The translations under genes and the position numbers were made by a program. Source: Pirellulales bacterium (GTDB taxonomy: Bacteria; Planctomycetota; Planctomycetia; Pirellulales; JAEUIK01). From it: 64,000 nt of DNA. The stretch covers positions 136,328 through 200,327 of the forward strand of contig JBFXAH010000007.1 in assembly GCA_050184475.1 (NCBI GenBank), written 5' to 3'. The notes beneath the pieces are model-generated. The model saw only the letters and a list, made by a program, of their open reading frames with translations, was not told the DNA's origin and did no database searches. Positions 50,255 through 58,399 of the stretch are shown piece after piece. The stretch's first letter is position 1; every line of letters begins with the position of its first letter.

Positions 50255-50335
50255 GGTTTCGCTCAGTTCGGATTGCAGACCGAGCATTTCCAGTGGTGCG
50301 CAACTTGTGTTCTGCGCCGCCAAGCGGGGTGTCCC

Positions 50336-51496
50336 ATGACGCGACAAAGCTGGACCCTGTGCGATACCTCGCGCGATGTCTACACGGCTGAATTGAATCT
50401 GGCCGGCAAAGACCTGGCGTCGCTGGCACCCGGTTGCTCGGTTCATCAGCGCACGCTGCGCGGCGGCCTGCGCGACGGCGTCGAAGTCGTCGAGATCGAC
50501 AACGGCGCCTTTCGTTGCACCGTGCTGCCAACGCGCGGCATGGGTTTGTGGCGCGCGGCCTTGGGCCAATTCCAGTTGGGTTGGCGCGCACCCGTGCCTG
50601 GCCCCGTCAATCCTCGTAACGTGCCCCTCTGGGAGCCGAGCGGGCTGGGCTGGCTGCGGGGTTTCGACGAACTGTTGTGCCGCTGTGGTTTGGAGTCGAA
50701 TGGCGGCCCCGTGTTCGACCCGCAGGGCAGATTGCGCTATCCGCTGCATGGCCGCATCGCTAACACCCCCGCCTGGAAGCTCGAGCTGACCATCGACGAC
50801 GAAGAGATCAGCCTGACGGGAGTCGTCGACGAGGCCTGCTTGTATCACAGCAAGTTGCGGCTGACATCGACTGTCCGCACCCGCGCCGGCGAGCCGGGAT
50901 TGCGCATCGAAGACACGGTGCAGAATCTGTCGGCCGAGCCTGGCCAGATGGAACTGCTGTACCACACAAACTTCGGCCAGCCGTTGCTCGAGCCGGGGGC
51001 CGAAATCGTAGCGCCGGCGAGAACTGTCGTGCCCTGGACGGCGCGGGCGGCCGAAGGGGTCGATCACTGGAACACTTACGGGCCCGAGGAGCCAGGCTTC
51101 ACCGAGCAGGTTTATTTTCTTGACCTGGCGGCGGGTGCCGGCGACCAGACCGAAGTGCTGTTGCGCAACGCCCGAGCCAATCGCGGCGTGAGCCTGCATT
51201 TCTCGAAGCGCGAGTTCCCGTACTTCACCTTATGGAAGAGCACGCAGGCCGCGGCCGACGGCTACGTGACCGGCCTGGAGCCGGGCGTCAACTTGCCGAA
51301 CGAACGTCCATTCGAAGAAGAGCAGCGGCGCGTGGTCGAACTGGCCGGCGGCGAATCGCGCACTTTTCATCTGCGGCTGGAAGCGCACGGCGAGGCGACG
51401 GGCGTCGCAGCGGCTGCTTCACGCATCGCGACACTCGTGAGCGGCGCCGCGCCGCGCGTGCTGACGCAGCCCGAGCCCCCCTGGGCACCGGCCTGA
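50336..51496 (+). CDS. aldose-1-epimerase-like (DUF4432-type) protein
   Basis: I chose the inner ATG 50336 (MTRQSWTLCD...). YPLHGRIANTPAWKLE and a beta-sandwich-like pattern are present. The family name is from memory. Confidence 0.55.
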   Translation: MTRQSWTLCDTSRDVYTAELNLAGKDLASLAPGCSVHQRTLRGGLRDGVEVVEIDNGAFRCTVLPTRGMGLWRAALGQFQLGWRAPVPGPVNPRNVPLWEPSGLGWLRGFDELLCRCGLESNGGPVFDPQGRLRYPLHGRIANTPAWKLELTIDDEEISLTGVVDEACLYHSKLRLTSTVRTRAGEPGLRIEDTVQNLSAEPGQMELLYHTNFGQPLLEPGAEIVAPARTVVPWTARAAEGVDHWNTYGPEEPGFTEQVYFLDLAAGAGDQTEVLLRNARANRGVSLHFSKREFPYFTLWKSTQAAADGYVTGLEPGVNLPNERPFEEEQRRVVELAGGESRTFHLRLEAHGEATGVAAAASRIATLVSGAAPRVLTQPEPPWAPA

Positions 51497-51878: not shown

Positions 51879-52265
51879 TTACCACGGCCCGCGGACGTAG
51901 TAGACGCCGAACTGATCGGTATCACTCGGCCAGCGCGGCGTGCCGCGGAACGGCGCGCCGGTGTATTCGACCGGTCCGGGATAGCCGCGCGAGAACTGGT
52001 GGTAAATCGGCGTCACGCGCGTTCCCCCCACGCCCCAGTGATAATCGGTTTGCAGCGCCGCGGTCGGCGGGACGACGAGCGCAACGGGGCGACCCCAAGC
52101 GACGTGGTAATAGTCGCCGTGCCAGGTGTAGATGTTGGCTGCCTCGGCCGCGCGGTAGCGCCAGCGACGGGCGGCTTTCGTCTCGAAACCGTGCGCGGCG
52201 TCGAGCGAAACGCAGGTTACCAACAGCAAAATGGCCAATTGCAATGGTCGCGCGATCATGGGCAA
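51879..52265 (-). CDS. small secreted hypothetical protein (128 aa)
   Basis: The signal peptide is MPMIARPLQLAILLLVTCVSLDAA. The protein is rich in Tyr, Trp and Pro. It shares a VPP...Y.P..H.F core with the upstream gene product. Confidence 0.6.
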   Translation of the reverse strand: MPMIARPLQLAILLLVTCVSLDAAHGFETKAARRWRYRAAEAANIYTWHGDYYHVAWGRPVALVVPPTAALQTDYHWGVGGTRVTPIYHQFSRGYPGPVEYTGAPFRGTPRWPSDTDQFGVYYVRGPW

Positions 52266-52339: not shown

Positions 52340-52837
52340 TTACCATTTGCGGCAATTGACTCCCGGAAAACCGGGGAGTTCGTCCAGGCAATTGTGCCCC
52401 CACCGCACGCGCGTGATCGTCGTGCCAGGGGCGGGCTTGCAACAGCACGGCTTCTTGCAGCAGGTGCGGCAGCACGATCCACATCCCGGCCCACAGCAGC
52501 CGTGGCCCGATTCGAGCGGGCCGAGCTCGTCGTCGGACGTGCCATAGTGCCGGTAATACTTGCGGTGATGCGTATACAAGAACTCGTGCGGCATCAGCGG
52601 CTGATAGGTGATCCAGGTGTGCCCGACGTGCGGCGGCACGGGGCGCGGCGACAAGTACATCTGGGCCGGCACGCCACCGTAGGCTGGCGAAGGCCCGACG
52701 TAGTAGTTGTAAAACAGGTCGGGCGTTGTCGCGCCGGGCCGGTAACCCTGGGCAGCGGCCGGACGAGCCGCTCCCACGGTCACGACCACGGCCATGAACA
52801 GGGAGGGCAGCAGCACACGCATGAACTTTCGAGACAT
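52340..52837 (-). CDS. small secreted protein with Cys-dense C-terminal segment (165 aa)
   Basis: I chose the inner ATG 52837 with a GAGGAG RBS. The signal peptide is MSRKFMRVLLPSLFMAVVVTVGAARPAAA. The sequence GHGCCGPGCGSCCRTCCKKPCCCKPAPG has 10 Cys within 20 residues (aa 114-133). Confidence 0.6.
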   Translation of the reverse strand: MSRKFMRVLLPSLFMAVVVTVGAARPAAAQGYRPGATTPDLFYNYYVGPSPAYGGVPAQMYLSPRPVPPHVGHTWITYQPLMPHEFLYTHHRKYYRHYGTSDDELGPLESGHGCCGPGCGSCCRTCCKKPCCCKPAPGTTITRVRWGHNCLDELPGFPGVNCRKW

Positions 52838-53299
52838 CGGCGAGCTCCTCTGGGTCGGAGAAGAACTTCTGCGAGCGGTTCGAATAGCGACATTGGGGAC
52901 CTCCAGCGAGCCGGTGGCAGGCGGAGCCACCGATCGCCGGCGGGTCGCGCGGCGCCGATTCGCGATCGGGCAGCCGACCTTCGAACGGCCGACGGGAGTC
53001 TCGCATCGCCAGATGCGCGTCGCCGTCGGCGTCCAGAAACTATCTCGGCGCTGGCCGGTCGCAGGGATGAATCTTTGTGCGCCGCGCGTGTCAGAAGAGC
53101 TTGCCGCATCAAGTTTAACGACGATCAGACTTGGGGGCAGGACCGCATACCCGCTATAATCGACACGACCCGCACGACGGGCTGAACCCGGGTTCCAGAT
53201 CGCAGCGGCGGCACTGCTTGAGGGAGCATCCGCGGTCAGAAAGGACTCGATACGGTCACGGGAGGACCGACCGACTGGTCTCATCTCGCCTGGGCGTCA

Positions 53300-55675
53300 T
53301 TGGGTATCTGGCCACGGAGGCCAGCCTTCGCAGGTCGAACCGCTCGGGATGCGTCGCTCCCCGGGGTGTCAAAATTGCAACCTGTTTTCTTGACGTTGGG
53401 GAGTTCTCGCTTGGCAGTCTCGAAAAGTCGCAAACTCTCGGCAGAGCAGGCGAAAACCGCGCACAGCAACGGCCACGCAGCCAATGGCGCGGTCGTCAAA
53501 CGCGGCGCGAAATCGGATAACGGGTCCGCGACTGACAGCACCGATGTCGGTGACGAGGGCGCCGAGAACGCCGATGAAGCAGGCGCCGACGACCGCGCGC
53601 ATGCCGAATCCAACGGCGCGGGTCGCAAGTCGCGCCGTCGCGCCACCGCCCAGTCGATGGCCGCCAGCCAGCGCGATATCTCGGTCAGCGAATTCTTCGC
53701 CAAGAATCGCCACTTGTTGGGCTTCGACAATCCGCGCAAGGCGCTACTGACCACGGTCAAGGAAGCAGTCGACAACGCGCTCGACGCTTGCGAAGAGGCC
53801 GGCATTCTTCCCGAAGTCTGGGTCCATATTCGCCAGACCGGCGACACTCGTTATCAGGTCGGCGTGCAAGACAACGGGCCAGGCATTCTCAAGCAGCAGA
53901 TTCCCAACGTCTTCGGCAAGCTGCTCTACGGGTCAAAGTTTCACCGTCTGCGAATGAGCCGCGGTCAGCAAGGGATCGGCATCAGCGCCGCCGGCATGTA
54001 CGGCCTGCTGACCACGGGCAAACCGGTCAAGATCATGTCGAAGGTTTCGCCCAAGAAGCCGGCGCACTACTACGAAATCGCGATTAACACGAAGGTCAAC
54101 CGCCCCGAGATTCTCAACGGCAAAGGAGACGGGGTCGACGTGCCGCCGGGAGCAGCCGGCCAGGCAGCGATGGAAAAGCACGCCATCGAATGGGTCGAAA
54201 CCGATCACGGCACGCGCGTCACCATCGAGCTCGAAGCTCGCTACCAGCGCGGCCGCGGCAGCGTCGACGATTATCTGGCGCAAACCTGCATCGCCAACCC
54301 GCACATCAAGCTGCACTACATCGATCCGGAAGGGACCACCACCGAGTTCGAGCGTTCGACCGAGGAACTGCCCCCCGAAGCCAAAGAGATCATGCCGCAC
54401 CCGTACGGCATCGAGCTCGGGCAATTGGTGACGATGCTCAAAGACTCGAAGCCGATGTCGCTGTCGCAGTTCTTGAGCGGTTCGTTCTCGCGCGTCAGCT
54501 CAAGCACCGCCAAGCGCATCTGTGAGACAGCCAAGCTCAGCACGCGGGCGAACGTTCACCGCGTCGGTCGCCACGAAGCCGAATCTCTCTACAAAGCCCT
54601 GCAAGAGACGCGCATCCCGCCGCCGTCGACCGATTGCGTGGTGCCGATCGGTGAGCAGCGGCTGCTCAAGGGGCTGCATCACGTGGTGCCGGGCGACTTC
54701 TACGTGGCGGTAACTCGCCCGCCGGCCGTGTATCGCGGCAATCCGTTCGTGATCGAGGCGGCCTTGGCCTATGGCGGGGCGCCTTCGGCCGCCCGCGTGT
54801 CACTCGAGCAACTGACCGACTTTCTGCAAGAGAGCGACGCCCGCACGTTGCGGCAGTTTCTGGCCACGACGTTCCAGGGAGTGGGCATGGAGGGGGCCAA
54901 CAAGATTGTCAAAGAGTCGGGCCTCGGCACCCGGCAGACCCCCAGCAAGCTCAAGCCCAAGGAAATCCTGAAACTGCACGAGGCCCTGCAAAGCGTCAAT
55001 CTCGACGAAGGGCAAACGATGAACGTGCTGCGATACGCCAACCGCGTGCCGCTGCAGTTTCAACAGGGGGCTTGCGCCATCACGCAAACCGTGGTGGGCA
55101 CGAGTTGGCGCGCCTACGGGTTGACGCAGTCGCGCAATTCGTTGCCCAGTGGGCCGGTCACCATCATGGTACACATGGCCAGCGTGTGGGTGCCGTTCAC
55201 CAGCGAATCGAAGGAAGCGATCGCCGGCTATCCCGAAATCCAGCGCGAGCTGCGGCTGGCGTTGCAGGCGATCGGTCGCAAGCTCGGGCTGTACATGCGT
55301 CGCAAATTGAAAGTGCGCGACGCCGGCGCCCGCCGCAACACGTTCCTCAAATACCTGAACGAGATCGCCGAGGCGGTGACCGTTATCAAGGACTATCCCG
55401 AAAGCCGCACCAAGCAGCTCTACGAAAAGCTGTGCGCGGTGGCCAAAGTCAAGACGCTGCACGCCGATCTGCGGGTCGACGAGAAAGGCAACTTCGTCGA
55501 AGAAAGCGGTGACGAGGCTCAGGACTTTGGCGACAACGTGCTGATCGTCGATCGGGACGCGACCGACAGCGCGTCGGCTGCTCCCGAAGGTGCCGATCAA
55601 GAGACTGCCGCGACCGCGCCGCGAGGGTCGAAATCCAAAGCCAAACGGTCGACGGCCAAACGCCGCGGCAAGTAA
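53300..55675 (+). CDS. top6B: DNA topoisomerase VI subunit B (GHKL ATPase)
   Basis: ISVSEFFAKNRHLLGFDNPRKALLTTVKEAVDNALDACEE (N-box), VQDNGPGI (G1) and SRGQQGIGISAA (G2) are present, followed by an H2TH region. The transducer has VYRGNPFVIEAALAYGG...LRYANRVPLQFQQGACAIT. The start is ambiguous: 53300, TTG 53411 (GGGGAG RBS) or ATG 53657. Confidence 0.88.
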   Translation: MGIWPRRPAFAGRTARDASLPGVSKLQPVFLTLGSSRLAVSKSRKLSAEQAKTAHSNGHAANGAVVKRGAKSDNGSATDSTDVGDEGAENADEAGADDRAHAESNGAGRKSRRRATAQSMAASQRDISVSEFFAKNRHLLGFDNPRKALLTTVKEAVDNALDACEEAGILPEVWVHIRQTGDTRYQVGVQDNGPGILKQQIPNVFGKLLYGSKFHRLRMSRGQQGIGISAAGMYGLLTTGKPVKIMSKVSPKKPAHYYEIAINTKVNRPEILNGKGDGVDVPPGAAGQAAMEKHAIEWVETDHGTRVTIELEARYQRGRGSVDDYLAQTCIANPHIKLHYIDPEGTTTEFERSTEELPPEAKEIMPHPYGIELGQLVTMLKDSKPMSLSQFLSGSFSRVSSSTAKRICETAKLSTRANVHRVGRHEAESLYKALQETRIPPPSTDCVVPIGEQRLLKGLHHVVPGDFYVAVTRPPAVYRGNPFVIEAALAYGGAPSAARVSLEQLTDFLQESDARTLRQFLATTFQGVGMEGANKIVKESGLGTRQTPSKLKPKEILKLHEALQSVNLDEGQTMNVLRYANRVPLQFQQGACAITQTVVGTSWRAYGLTQSRNSLPSGPVTIMVHMASVWVPFTSESKEAIAGYPEIQRELRLALQAIGRKLGLYMRRKLKVRDAGARRNTFLKYLNEIAEAVTVIKDYPESRTKQLYEKLCAVAKVKTLHADLRVDEKGNFVEESGDEAQDFGDNVLIVDRDATDSASAAPEGADQETAATAPRGSKSKAKRSTAKRRGK

Positions 55676-55779
55676 CAGGCGATCGACGCCTGGGTGCCAC
55701 TGCTGGCTTGTCCAGCAGTGCCTATGGGGCGACTGTCCCCGTCAACTGGATGCTGTTTTCACTAACACTTGGTTACCAC

Positions 55780-56943
55780 ATGGCCAAAAAAGCCCGCGGC
55801 AAATCGACTTCGAGCAGCTCCGGCACCGCGACCGCGCGCCCCAAGCTCAACGAACGCGACAAGAAAACCATGGGGGAGCTGCACGGCCTGGCCGGCGGCG
55901 TGGAAACGGCCGCCGACAAGAAACGCGACCCCTACCTCGATATCCCCAGCCGCACCTTGTCGAACGTCCGGTTCAACAAGGCCAAGCGGTTCATCGAGAT
56001 GGGCAAGAACACCACGCGCCGGCAGCTCTTCAATCTCTCGCAGGCCAAGAGCTACATGCAAACGCTGCTTGTCGCCAAAGGCTCGAAGCAGCTCATCACC
56101 GAAGGCAAGACCACCAGCTTGCGAGGTTTGTTCTACTTGCTCAAGCACACGATCGAGGGGACCAAGGAAGACACCTTCGAAGAGCAGACCGAGTGCGACT
56201 CGATCATCGAGGATGTCGAGGTGACGCTCAACGCCCTGCGAGAAGAACTGCACTTGTTCGCCAAGGAAGCTGGCAGCATCGTCGGGCCAATCACGCTGGT
56301 CGACACCGGCGACGAAATCGATTGCTCGCGGATGGGCTCGGGCGGCTATAGCATCCCGTCGATCGTCGAGCCCGACGTAATCCAGTTCAAGAACAACCGC
56401 GCCAAGTTCGTGCTGCACGTCGAAAAGGGGACGGTCTGGCGGCGGTTCAACGAAGACAAATTCTGGCAGAAGCACAACTGCATTCTCACCCACGGCGGCG
56501 GGCAGCCCCCGCGCGGCGTGCGGCGGCTGTTGCATCGCTTTCATTACGAGCTCGACTTGCCGGTCTACTGCCTGTTGGATAACGACCCCTGGGGATACTA
56601 CATCTACAGCGTGATCAAACAGGGCTCGATCAACCTGGCCTTCGAGTCGAAGCGGATGGCCGTGCCAGGGGCCAAGTACTTGGGGCTGCGGTCGATCGAC
56701 TTCGCCCGTTGCGAGCTGTCGCCGGCGGTGCAAATCCGGCTGAACGACACCGACATCAAGCGGGCCAAACAGATCGCCGCCTACCCCTGGTTCGCCGACA
56801 AGAAGCCGTGGCAGCGAGAGATCGAGCAGATGCTCAAGAACGCCTTCAAGCTCGAGGTCGAGTCGCTGATCTCCAAGAACATCAGCTACGTGACCGAGAC
56901 GTACGTGCCCGAGCGGCTCAAGCAGCAAGACTGGCTCGACTAG
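55780..56943 (+). CDS. top6A: DNA topoisomerase VI subunit A (Spo11-like)
   Basis: I chose the inner ATG 55780 (MAKKARGKS...). SLRGLFYLLKH carries the catalytic-Tyr motif. The Toprim Glu is in FVLHVEKGTVW and the DxD is in YCLLDNDPWGYYIY. The protein is about 387 aa. Confidence 0.88.
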   Translation: MAKKARGKSTSSSSGTATARPKLNERDKKTMGELHGLAGGVETAADKKRDPYLDIPSRTLSNVRFNKAKRFIEMGKNTTRRQLFNLSQAKSYMQTLLVAKGSKQLITEGKTTSLRGLFYLLKHTIEGTKEDTFEEQTECDSIIEDVEVTLNALREELHLFAKEAGSIVGPITLVDTGDEIDCSRMGSGGYSIPSIVEPDVIQFKNNRAKFVLHVEKGTVWRRFNEDKFWQKHNCILTHGGGQPPRGVRRLLHRFHYELDLPVYCLLDNDPWGYYIYSVIKQGSINLAFESKRMAVPGAKYLGLRSIDFARCELSPAVQIRLNDTDIKRAKQIAAYPWFADKKPWQREIEQMLKNAFKLEVESLISKNISYVTETYVPERLKQQDWLD

Positions 56944-57217
56944 GGGCCCCCGCAGGCTGCCACTTCGGCGCGCACGGGTACGACAGCCGGGCGCCCCGCG
57001 ATTTCAGCGCGATAGTCGCTCTTCTAGTGGCACGTGCCGTCTGTATCGAAAATTACGACGGTAGCTTGGTTGCCGCCGAACAACCGGTCTCTCGACGGCG
57101 GAACTCGCCGCTAGTGGACAGTCGAGCCGGGCATCCACGGCGTTGTCGCGATTCTAAAGTTGTAGGGCCATCGTGTTCTACATCTTCGACAACTCGAATT
57201 GCACTGCGACAAGTCCT

Positions 57218-58399
57218 ATGCCCCTGGCTATCGAATCTCAGCAAGGCACCGAACTTGAAACACCGACGCTGCCAAAGTCGTCCCTGGTGGCGCACGCGAA
57301 GATCATGGTGGTGGATGACGAGCCGCTCAACATTCGCACGGTCTGCCACCACCTATCGATCGCCGGATACCAACACTTCATTCCTGTAAGCGACTCCACG
57401 CAGGTGCTGGGGGCGCTCGCGATGGAAGAGCCGGATGTTGTCCTGCTCGATATCGTGATGCCGGAGCCGGGCGGATTGGAGCTCCTCTCGCAAATCCGCG
57501 CCCTGGAGGGATGGGAGCAACTCCCGGTCGTGATCCTCACGGCGATCGACGATTGCAGCGTGAAGGCGAGGGCGTTGGACCTGGGGGCTACCGACTTCCT
57601 CACGAAGCCGGTGGATTCGAGCGAGCTGATCCCACGCGTGCGAAATGCCCTGTTGCTCAAGGCATATCACGACCATCTGCGAACGTATGCGCAACGGCTC
57701 GAAGCACAGGTCCGCGCGCGCACCGACGAACTCGAACAGTCCCGGATGGCCATTATTCAATCGTTGGCGCGCGCGGCGGAGTACCGCGATAACGAGACAG
57801 GCCGCCATGCGTTGCGCGTCGGAAAATACGCCGGCCTGATTGCGCGGGCGCTTGGCTTGTCCGAGGAGTCGTCGGAGCTGATCGAGTTGGCAGCGCCACT
57901 TCACGACGTGGGCAAGATCGCGATCTCGGACTCCATCCTGCTGAAGCCCGACAAGCTCACGCCCGAGGAAATGGAGGTAATGCAATCGCACTGTGGGCAC
58001 GGCAAACGCATTTTCGAGCCTATTTGCGGCGACGAGGTCGTGGCCTATCGCGCCCATACCCGACTTGGTCAAGAAATGGTTGGGACCTGCCGCGCGCCGG
58101 TCCTCGATATGGCGGCATCGATCGCGCTCACCCACCATGAGCGTTGGGACGGCAATGGTTATCCACTCGGTCTGGCTGGCGAGGATATTCCCATCGAAGG
58201 TCGCGTCACCGCGGTTGCTGACGCGTTCGACGCACTGAGTTCCAAACGCAGCTACAAGCGACCTTTTCCCCTCGATAGGTGCTTCGCCATCCTCGAGGAG
58301 GGGCGGGCGACGCAGTTCGACCCCGCGGTGCTCGATGCCTTCTTCGCTTGCCGTAGAGAGATCGTCCGCGTCCAGTTGTTGCTGGCGGAAGTGCAATAG
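57218..58399 (+). CDS. response regulator with HD-GYP domain (RpfG-like c-di-GMP phosphodiesterase)
   Basis: The REC domain has IMVVDDEPLN...DVVLLDIVMPEPGG...VVILTA. The HD-GYP domain has PLHDVGKIAI...THHERWDGNGYPLGL. The start is either ATG 57218 or GTG 57173. Confidence 0.88.
   Translation: MPLAIESQQGTELETPTLPKSSLVAHAKIMVVDDEPLNIRTVCHHLSIAGYQHFIPVSDSTQVLGALAMEEPDVVLLDIVMPEPGGLELLSQIRALEGWEQLPVVILTAIDDCSVKARALDLGATDFLTKPVDSSELIPRVRNALLLKAYHDHLRTYAQRLEAQVRARTDELEQSRMAIIQSLARAAEYRDNETGRHALRVGKYAGLIARALGLSEESSELIELAAPLHDVGKIAISDSILLKPDKLTPEEMEVMQSHCGHGKRIFEPICGDEVVAYRAHTRLGQEMVGTCRAPVLDMAASIALTHHERWDGNGYPLGLAGEDIPIEGRVTAVADAFDALSSKRSYKRPFPLDRCFAILEEGRATQFDPAVLDAFFACRREIVRVQLLLAEVQ

Follow-up and report, generated by a model that had tools for sequence, protein, structure and literature searches.

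The locus described here raises the question of what an extra segment lodged within the transducer domain of a planctomycete topoisomerase VI B subunit (Top6B) is, where it came from, and what it might do for the enzyme. Topoisomerase VI is the model enzyme for both the Spo11 machinery and the type IIB mechanism. Recent work has shown that its single H2TH domain holds on to the bent G-segment and links closure of the ATPase with cleavage. The gene lies in a stretch of 64,000 nucleotides, which as a whole is referred to as the window. An earlier note on this DNA had read the extra segment as a second H2TH-like module, and in this study its boundary, fold, ancestry, distribution and possible roles were investigated.

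The host protein and the site of insertion

Judged from its sequence, the host protein is a genuine, complete bacterial Top6B from a Pirellulales planctomycete. With the NCBIfam equivalog NF003218, whose cut-off is 274, it reached 665.9 bits, phmmer matched it to the PDB chain 2q2e_B of M. mazei (E 6.6e-142), and Pfam recognised HATPase_c (E 1.9e-10) and Topo-VIb_trans (PF09239, E 1.2e-50, aa 569-674). The N, G1 and G2 boxes of the ATPase (EAVDNALDA, DNGPGI and SRGQQGIGIS) are present and align with those of M. mazei, and the GHKL domain also harbors a lineage-specific insertion of 19 aa at about aa 283-305. The second part of the transducer holds RYANRVPL, WRAY at the WKxY position, and the switch lysine K638 in SESKEA, a residue kept by 215 of the 216 sequences in the core alignment. 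In the full Top6B model, which as a whole matched Top6B structures in Foldseek with TMq values of 0.63-0.70, the pLDDT is mostly 77-93 in the GHKL domain and 82-94 in the canonical H2TH domain (H2TH1), which forms four helices (model residues 258-321), and the stalk helix spans model residues 530-582.

The true start of top6B is likely the TTG at 53411, which has GGGGAG ahead of it and would give a product of 754 aa, because the homologue P0001 starts MAVSK. The neighbouring gene, top6A, encodes a protein that scored 550.8 bits against NCBIfam NF003333 (cut-off 465) and matched TOP6A-Spo11_Toprim (5.5e-57) and TP6A_N (3e-15) in Pfam; the predicted activity of the A2B2 enzyme is ATP-dependent strand passage. 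Scans of the neighbourhood for promoters or terminators, Rfam families and tRNAs revealed nothing relevant. The layout of the two genes and of the Top6B domains is given in Table 1.

Table 1. Genes and Top6B domains at the locus, in window positions; amino acids are counted along the 791-aa open reading frame unless stated otherwise, and the H2TH limits used for M. mazei Top6B are those of PMC13040014.
Feature	Position	Strand	Remarks
top6B (topoisomerase VI subunit B)	53300..55675	+	open reading frame of 791 aa, counted from the first in-frame start
GHKL (Bergerat-fold) ATPase domain	53645..54391	+	aa 116-364, equal to M. mazei Top6B residues 5-234
Canonical H2TH domain (H2TH1)	54392..54622	+	aa 365-441, gap-free on M. 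mazei residues 235-311
Transducer domain, part 1	54623..54781	+	aa 442-494; final strand ...NPFVIEAALAYGGA, which is strand E366-376 of the model
Inserted H2TH domain (H2TH2)	54782..54997	+	aa 495-566; aa 458-529 if numbered from the likely TTG start
Transducer domain, part 2, and long stalk helix	54998..55414	+	aa 567-705, equal to M. mazei residues 364-500
top6A (topoisomerase VI subunit A)	55708..56943	+	likely start ATG 55780; next to top6B, downstream

The phmmer match to the solved structures is split within the transducer. The stretch aa 116-494 falls on residues 5-364 of 2q2e_B and aa 567-701 on residues 364-500, while the match to S. shibatae Top6B breaks likewise, from 494 to 571. 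This split defines an insertion of 72 aa that both solved proteins lack (Table 1). It is nested in the tip of a transducer beta-hairpin and is hereafter called H2TH2. The earlier note had placed an insertion of about 80 aa in the Top6B transducer; the insertion is real and at the place named, with coordinates and both quoted peptides exact, and is slightly shorter than was stated. The same note had stated that characterised Top6B structures have a single H2TH domain, and this holds for the solved structures from M. mazei and S. shibatae.

The same hairpin is occupied elsewhere by low-complexity loops of 12-29 aa, by inteins of about 515 aa, or by another domain; inteins sit at exactly this site in some archaeal Top6Bs, and Hint-type domains were found there in P0142 and P0160. 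The hairpin is thus a permissive site, so that tolerance alone could account for an insertion here.

Fold and ancestry of the inserted module

Modelled alone with AlphaFold2, the insert reached a pLDDT of 84.2, with helices at residues 8-17, 23-30, 35-46 and 59-71, and inside the full Top6B model its pLDDT was 74-88. Its best Foldseek match was the H2TH domain of M. mazei Top6B (TMq 0.89-0.90, rmsd 1.0 Å); Top6B H2TH matches overall ranged over TMq 0.83-0.90 and rmsd 1.0-1.5 Å, and the next matches were uS13, sIHF, MutM and NEMF (TMq 0.54-0.80). In these predicted models the insert is an ordered, compact four-helix H2TH fold, superposable on known H2TH domains.

The resemblance of the two copies can also be followed in their sequences. 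By Smith-Waterman, H2TH2 aligned with H2TH1 without gaps over about 70 residues with a score of 84 (z about 13.6), a value attained by 0 of 5000 shuffles (mean 23.7, sd 4.4), and in the core of the insert (aa 515-566), where the earlier note had aligned the two by eye, 16 of 52 residues are identical. Comparison of profiles with hhalign gave a probability of 98.6% (E 6.2e-16, 69 ungapped columns) for H2TH2 against H2TH1 and of 98.7% against the H2TH1 profile of Myxococcota, and H2TH2 lies gap-free on M. mazei residues 236-309 with 22 of 74 identities (z 12.3). Both copies match identical positions (176-239) of Pfam NFACT_N, the Pfam matches of H2TH2 to NFACT_N (E 2.6e-5) and to Ribosomal_S13 being weak and under the family thresholds. 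BLASTP of H2TH1 against H2TH2 returned no alignment at E <= 100, and the relation was detected by Smith-Waterman and profile methods alone. The use of composition-based statistics with short queries may have caused this miss, which was not taken as proof of dissimilarity, since the Smith-Waterman shuffles and the profile-profile comparison are clear. At the computational level, these comparisons show that H2TH2 descends from a Top6B-type H2TH domain; the likeness that had been seen by eye is thus borne out, and the transducer contains a folded module of H2TH type whose ancestry lies in Top6B.

Like the canonical Top6B H2TH domains (2q2e, 9o0g, 1mx0), H2TH2 has the four-helix fold and aligns with them ungapped at 30% identity, but it is located within the transducer beta-hairpin, whereas the canonical domain is located between GHKL and transducer. 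The H2TH modules of Fpg/MutM/Nei, uS13, sIHF and NFACT/NEMF share with it the fold class and a G-x-G hairpin; none of them, however, comes near the Top6B H2TH in similarity to H2TH2.

Within the gene, the two copies share about 30% amino acid and 44% nucleotide identity, and the GC3 of H2TH2 (0.83) is close to that of the whole gene (0.82); computed from the sequences, the duplication is shown as an ancient one. H2TH2 is 25-37% identical to the H2TH1 of every Top6B lineage and equidistant from them in HMM scores and mean identities, and the window's own H2TH1 (WIN_H1) ranks 33rd of 81 as its relative, so that the donor copy cannot be singled out from this equidistance. Duplication of the resident H2TH1 would be the parsimonious source. 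With respect to the internal duplication proposed in the earlier note, the ancestry from a Top6B H2TH therefore stood, while the protein's own H2TH1 proved no closer to the insert than the H2TH1 of other lineages.

Distribution of the module and a parallel insertion in Myxococcota

H2TH2 was observed intact and in frame in all 120 closest homologues, and every Pirellulales-type homologue examined carries the insert. The named carriers belong to Pirellulales or Planctomycetes, together with two MAGs labelled Acidobacteriota, and over 100 assemblies independent of one another contain the 72-aa module. The solved Top6Bs of archaea lack it, and among the 110 Top6B cluster representatives in which the site could be measured, 89 are without any insertion there. 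Neither of the findings that the earlier note had named as refuting its reading, an insertion present in ordinary archaeal Top6B or a disordered segment, was obtained. The Pirellulales-type insert clade was monophyletic in 100 of 100 bootstraps of a neighbour-joining tree of Top6B, and our computation shows that H2TH2 was gained once in this clade.

The earlier note had supposed that such an architecture, if confirmed, would be undescribed, a view weakened by the literature. Allen & Maxwell 2024 reported a 'unique alpha-helical bundle' in the Top6B of Pirellula staleyi and Cladocopium goreaui, a feature seen in an AlphaFold model, which lies beside the transducer domain or inside it and which the other topoisomerase VI enzymes modelled there lack (PMC11302465). 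Equated by description, this bundle is almost certainly the same feature as H2TH2. Their account of the bundle comes without an identification as H2TH, a link to a duplication, or a map of its distribution, and our literature search found no paper that recognised the extra helices of Pirellulales-type Top6B as an H2TH copy. The extra helices were thus previously noted in 2024, and their H2TH identity, the link to a duplication and the distribution are added here.

A clade of Myxococcota Top6B (P0130, P0275-P0303 and others) harbors a uS13-like H2TH domain at the same hairpin. This insert is like H2TH2 in its position between AYGG and R[LY]ANRVPL, in its length of 61-82 aa and in being of H2TH class, but it is unlike H2TH2 in origin, which is of uS13 type and not a Top6B H2TH. 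It scored 41.1 bits against Pfam Ribosomal_S13, above the curated cut-off of 31, and gave z values of 11-15 with residues 1-65 of E. coli S13, against 1-5 with its own Top6B H2TH and about 1 with the Pirellulales H2TH2. By hhalign, the probability was 75% between the Myxococcota and Pirellulales inserts and 96% between the Myxococcota insert and its own H2TH1, and the two insert-bearing clades were exclusively monophyletic in 0 of 100 neighbour-joining bootstraps. A single origin of the Pirellulales and Myxococcota inserts was rejected on the bootstraps, the hhalign values and the uS13 signal taken together. The presence of an independent uS13-like H2TH at the same hairpin argues that an H2TH domain in this place is selected for.

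A lineage-specific accessory domain in a type II topoisomerase subunit has also been described from E. coli GyrB, whose 170-aa insertion in the TOPRIM region reportedly has a novel fold and is critical for gyrase function (PMC2995079). The analogy holds at the level of principle only; the GyrB insertion differs from H2TH2 in belonging to a type IIA enzyme, in its host domain, in the novelty of its fold and in not being a duplicate of a resident domain.

Possible roles of the module and their meaning

We consider it rather probable that H2TH2 is a second H2TH derived from Top6B, seated in the transducer hairpin and likely acting as an accessory contact element. According to a single published sentence on the AlphaFold model of a relative, the bundle sits in the central DNA cavity (PMC11302465). 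The earlier note had put it next to the ATP-sensing transducer loop, a placement weakened by this model and by the switch lysine (aa 638), which follows the insert at a distance of about 70 residues. On the evidence of that model, H2TH2 would project into the central cavity that holds the transported (T) DNA segment, the reasoning on cavity and T-segment following PMC11302465 and PMC13040014, and would there most likely make contact with either the T-segment or the other B subunit. Such a contact would tune the recognition of DNA crossings or strand passage and not catalysis, and any contact with DNA would be made by the G-x-G hairpin together with R515, R518, R545 and K552, which are near-invariant, and not by a surface of the R263/K268/K308 type. 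No compensatory loss of DNA-binding elements was detected in the insert-bearing clades at the columns of the K268 and K308 equivalents and of the switch lysine. As the usual catalytic and DNA-binding motifs are all kept, H2TH2 is an addition and not a replacement. Our literature search found no characterised bacterial topoisomerase VI with this insert.

It is possible, though on the whole unlikely, that H2TH2 is a true H2TH duplicate which has given up nucleic-acid binding for a structural or protein-protein role, such as a contact with the partner Top6B on the other side of the cavity, support for the transducer, or a docking site for an accessory protein. The basic residues by which the M. 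mazei H2TH contacts DNA, R263, K268 and K308 (PMC5922973, PMC13040014), are all three gone from the insert, where they correspond to A522, G527 and N567, and the commonest residues at these positions over 118 sequences are the non-basic I, G and N. The mean net charge is also near neutral, at +0.8 (about +1) against +4.9 (about +5) in H2TH1. With the contact residues lost and the charge so low, DNA binding by H2TH2 stays conjectural, and the DNA-contact module of the earlier note has to be qualified in this respect. The domain nevertheless keeps about 9.6 K+R, among them the four near-invariant residues named above, and possesses a conserved G-x-G hairpin, typical of the H2TH motifs of Fpg, S13 and NFACT, which has been regained or kept in H2TH2 whereas the H2TH1 of the same protein is without it. 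An S-D-A-R motif (aa 512-515), invariant in H2TH2 and with no counterpart in H2TH1, could be an interface, and the closed-state dimer interface of the B subunits is extensive and takes in H2TH and transducer regions (PMC13040014); against a purely protein-contacting role, members of the H2TH fold family nearly always bind nucleic acids, as the Foldseek neighbours of the insert indicate, and the independent Myxococcota insert is a uS13 domain of RNA-binding type with a conserved TRKK cluster.

An accessory contact element would also have to be distinguished from a neutral passenger, that is, a duplicated fragment in a permissive surface loop which persists because it is harmless; we regard this as improbable. 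The hairpin does accommodate loops, inteins and another domain, and no domain of the protein is less conserved than H2TH2, which has 49-54% identity where overall identity is about 70%. Even so, the module is still about half identical at that distance and its conservation lies far above that of the C-terminal stretch and level with that of the functional H2TH1 (mean major-residue frequency 0.73 vs 0.76), which shows computationally that the two copies are under about equal constraint. None of the 120 close homologues has lost or disrupted it, it was reportedly kept after transfer into a dinoflagellate (PMC11302465), its fold is confidently predicted, and an H2TH was gained convergently in Myxococcota.

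A reading of the insert as an artefact or as the remnant of a mobile element (an assembly chimera, a degenerate intein or a recent tandem duplication) is scarcely credible despite the archaeal inteins at exactly this site, and it was rejected on the lack of any Pfam Hint, intein or LAGLIDADG signal in the window's Top6B or in the insert alone, the number of independent assemblies, the nucleotide divergence of the copies, the GC3 matching the gene, and the clear H2TH fold.

With a second H2TH that reportedly lies in the T-segment cavity, this enzyme offers a natural test case for the capabilities of such a module at that place. Its identification as H2TH explains the 'helical bundle' of Pirellula staleyi and Cladocopium goreaui and provides an annotation marker for a bacterial Top6B clade, and the case illustrates the duplication and re-insertion of a domain within one polypeptide, at a hot-spot loop that takes inteins, loops and domains. 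That a uS13-type H2TH arrived independently in this loop in Myxococcota suggests that the site matters for function and was not hit by accident. As a tentative extension, H2TH domains may have been captured at least twice independently, a Top6B H2TH in the Pirellulales-type clade and the N-terminal domain of uS13 in Myxococcota, giving a new T-segment contact in the cavity that alters substrate preference or coupling. If this is true, it would represent a convergent, modular re-tuning of a type IIB topoisomerase following its transfer from archaea to bacteria.

The topoisomerase VI operon and an insertion in the Top6B transducer domain

The window carries a topoisomerase VI operon of two genes, top6B-top6A, whose parts and surroundings are collected in the table. 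The nearest relatives of the window Top6B share 66-94% identity with it, those with a source name being Pirellulales or Planctomycetes, and the protein belongs to Top6B by every criterion that could be checked. Residue numbers are those of the 791-aa ORF from its first in-frame start; because of the comparison with the closest homologue and an upstream GGGGAG motif, the true start of top6B is likely TTG 53411, giving 754 aa and a numbering shift of -37, and top6A likely starts at ATG 55780. The operon seems to stand alone as a unit of two genes.

Features of the topoisomerase VI operon and its surroundings, in positions of the window
Feature	Position	Strand	Description
DUF4432 protein	50273-51496	+	Flanks the operon; functionally unrelated
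Neighbouring ORF	51879-52265	-	Small, apparently secreted protein; no Pfam match; Tyr/Pro/His-rich region apparently shared (by eye) with the next ORF
Neighbouring ORF	52340-53284	-	Small, apparently secreted protein; no Pfam match; cysteine-rich stretch at end, CCGPGCGSCCRTCCKKPCCCKP
Top6B	53300-55675	+	NCBIfam equivalog NF003218, 665.9 bits (cut-off 274); Pfam HATPase_c and Topo-VIb_trans
N-terminal extension of Top6B	within 53300-53644	+	Low-complexity, ~80-115 aa
Insertion in GHKL ATPase domain	54146-54214	+	ORF aa ~283-305, NGKGDGVDVPPGAAGQAAMEKHA; second lineage-specific insertion, ~19 aa, relative to M. mazei Top6B; predicted short strand and helix, pLDDT 77-86
Transducer insert (H2TH2)	54782-54997	+	aa 495-566, 72 residues
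C-terminal region of Top6B	within 55415-55675	+	Stands where M. mazei has an Ig-like C-terminal domain; lysine/arginine-rich tail KSKAKRSTAKRRGK at end
Top6A	55708-56943	+	NF003333, 550.8 bits (cut-off 465); Pfam Toprim and TP6A_N
Response regulator	57173-58399	+	HD-GYP-type HD domain; flanks the operon; functionally unrelated

In a phmmer search of all PDB chains, the window Top6B matched M. mazei Top6B (2q2e_B) in two pieces (E 6.6e-142), with query aa 116-494 corresponding to residues 5-364 and query aa 567-701 to residues 364-500, and the same break point was observed with S. shibatae Top6B; therefore, the residues between the two pieces have no counterpart in the solved Top6Bs. This insert, H2TH2, splits a transducer-domain beta-hairpin, with ...FVIEAALAYGG on one side and ...VLRYANRVPL on the other, and the Pfam transducer model is also broken into two stretches. 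An earlier note had proposed a second H2TH-like module of about 80 aa at 54782-55024; its coordinates and quoted peptides were exact on checking, and the insertion is present, with its size corrected to 72 aa.

The internal similarity claimed in that note between the insert and the canonical H2TH domain (H2TH1, aa 365-441) is real, as Smith-Waterman alignment with shuffles and hhalign agree. The two regions align ungapped over ~70 residues with a score of 84, which was reached by 0 of 5000 shuffles (23.7 +/- 4.4), and the core segment first noticed shows 16 identities in 52 positions. Profiles built from 118 homologues align with an hhalign probability of 98.6% (E 6.2e-16, 69 ungapped columns), and both regions, scanned singly, match positions 176-239 of NFACT_N, a Pfam family that includes an H2TH. 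BLASTP reported nothing between the insert and the canonical H2TH, a miss which we tentatively ascribe to the method and not to biology.

The core protein, modelled by AlphaFold2 with the 118-sequence alignment, gave a mean pLDDT of 78.7, and the insert (model residues 380-451) formed helices with block pLDDT of 74-88 in the pattern of the canonical H2TH (model residues 258-321). Modelled on its own, it yielded four helices (pLDDT 84.2, pTM 0.71), for which the top Foldseek match in the PDB was M. mazei Top6B (TMq 0.89-0.90, rmsd 1.0 A, 72-73 columns, 30% identity), followed by S. shibatae Top6B (TMq 0.83-0.86) and then the classical H2TH proteins uS13, sIHF and MutM/Fpg (TMq about 0.8), and NEMF. 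Since the solved Top6Bs are without the insert, and the insert aligns ungapped to M. mazei residues 236-309 (22/74 identity, z 12.3), the matched part is their H2TH domain. Neither observation that the earlier note had named as contrary to its reading was made, namely an insert in ordinary archaeal Top6B or disorder without an H2TH fold. By predicted structure and profile homology, the insert is placed in the H2TH fold class.

Distribution, age and source of the module

A domain-sized insert was found at the hairpin site in 120 of the 120 closest homologues. HMMER was run exhaustively over 1.84 billion cluster representatives, and among its best 150 matches the site could be measured in 110, of which 89 had no insertion, 8 a short loop, 8 a domain-sized insert and 5 an insert of ~515 aa. 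The two ~515-aa inserts that were scanned (P0142 and P0160, the latter from a Nanohaloarchaea MAG) are inteins with Intein_splicing and LAGLIDADG endonuclease domains; those of P0168, P0198 and P0246 match them in size. Insertions of widely differing kinds make the transducer hairpin loop a hot spot.

A scan of GTDB species genomes was ranked around the nearest insert-free Top6B lineage, which, among the matches listed, comprised Nitrospira, Rokubacteria/Methylomirabilota, Binatia and Burkholderiales MAGs (L001-L033). Its occurrence in several unrelated phyla of bacteria suggests that topo VI has been transferred horizontally. These loci and several from Phycisphaerae display, at the site, a low-complexity loop of 19-22 aa in which a PLAEGE motif is conserved, and other Planctomycetota (Phycisphaerae, Isosphaeraceae, Planctomycetaceae) have mostly no insertion or short loops there, among the matches listed. 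The Pirellulales-type module was also detected in at least two Acidobacteriota-labelled MAGs, L074 (Terriglobia MAG) and L079 (Ca. Sulfopaludibacter sp. SbA3), with about 70% identity to the window Top6B in the catalytic domains, reflecting either horizontal transfer or a binning error.

Across 118 sequences, H2TH2 shows a mean major-residue frequency of 0.73 (entropy 1.11 bits), compared with 0.76 (0.95 bits) for H2TH1, 0.87-0.89 for the GHKL and transducer parts and 0.66 for the C-terminal stretch, and module identity is still 49-54% where overall identity is ~70%. H2TH1 and H2TH2 share 44% nucleotide identity, with GC3 equal to the rest of the gene, so that the event is old, and neither an artefact of assembly nor a tandem duplication of recent date. 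The source of H2TH2 is a Top6B-type H2TH, the resident copy being one candidate: its identity to the H2TH1 of the same protein (25-33%) does not exceed that to the H2TH of any other Top6B lineage (up to 37%).

Another Top6B clade (Myxococcota where named; P0130, P0275-P0303, P0305, P0307, P0311, P0317, P0375) harbors an insert of 61-82 aa at the identical hairpin (window aa 494/567). It is unlike the Pirellulales module (hhalign probability 75%); against the H2TH1 profile of its own proteins the probability is 96%, with weak single-sequence Smith-Waterman scores (z 1-5). It resembles instead the N-terminal H2TH domain of ribosomal protein uS13, matching Pfam PF00416 at 41.1 bits when scanned alone (curated cut-off 31, E 2.9e-10). 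By Smith-Waterman, four of eight inserts scored 76-94 (z 11-15) against residues 1-65 of E. coli S13, and the other four gave z 1.3-6; the Pfam result serves as the independent check. A neighbour-joining tree was built from the core protein after removal of the insert; of its 100 bootstraps, all recovered the Pirellulales-type clade as monophyletic, 85 did so for the Myxococcota clade, and none joined the two in an exclusive group. The Myxococcota insert seems to have been gained independently and from another donor; read most simply, one permissive hairpin has twice captured an H2TH-class module in separate events.

Possible role and significance

In M. mazei topo VI, R263, K268 and K308 of the H2TH hold the arms of the bent G-segment, and the domain couples bending and cleavage to closure of the ATPase gate (PMC5922973, PMC13040014). 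The window H2TH1 has S, R and R at these positions (basic at two of three), and the switch lysine and WKxY-type loop are present, so that the enzyme, judged from its sequence, looks fully functional and H2TH2 would be an add-on. H2TH2 itself fails the test for Top6B DNA-contact residues, with A522, G527 and N567 at the three positions, and its mean net charge is +0.8 against +4.9 for H2TH1. By contrast, R515, R518, R545 and K552 of H2TH2 are near-invariant, as is its G-x-G hairpin, which resembles the motifs of Fpg, S13 and NFACT. In the AlphaFold model of P. staleyi, the corresponding helical bundle juts into the central cavity (Allen & Maxwell 2024, PMC11302465).

As our best inference, H2TH2 may make accessory contacts inside the T-segment cavity, with the transported duplex or the partner subunit, and could tune crossing recognition or strand passage. 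The main rival is that it is a purely structural or protein-contact element, and a neutral passenger is unlikely because of its conservation and the convergent gain.

The extra helices are already in print as an 'alpha-helical bundle' described for P. staleyi and C. goreaui alone, the latter a dinoflagellate that obtained it from Pirellulales through horizontal transfer; the nature of the bundle was not named, and Myxococcota are not among the structural models of that study (PMC11302465). The architecture can therefore not be called undescribed, as first suggested, though our full-text literature searches returned no paper that calls the bundle an H2TH or a duplication, or that ascribes a second H2TH to Top6B. 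H2TH2 is no surprise that alters the understanding of topo VI; it is a neat case of domain evolution with a mechanistic angle open to test.
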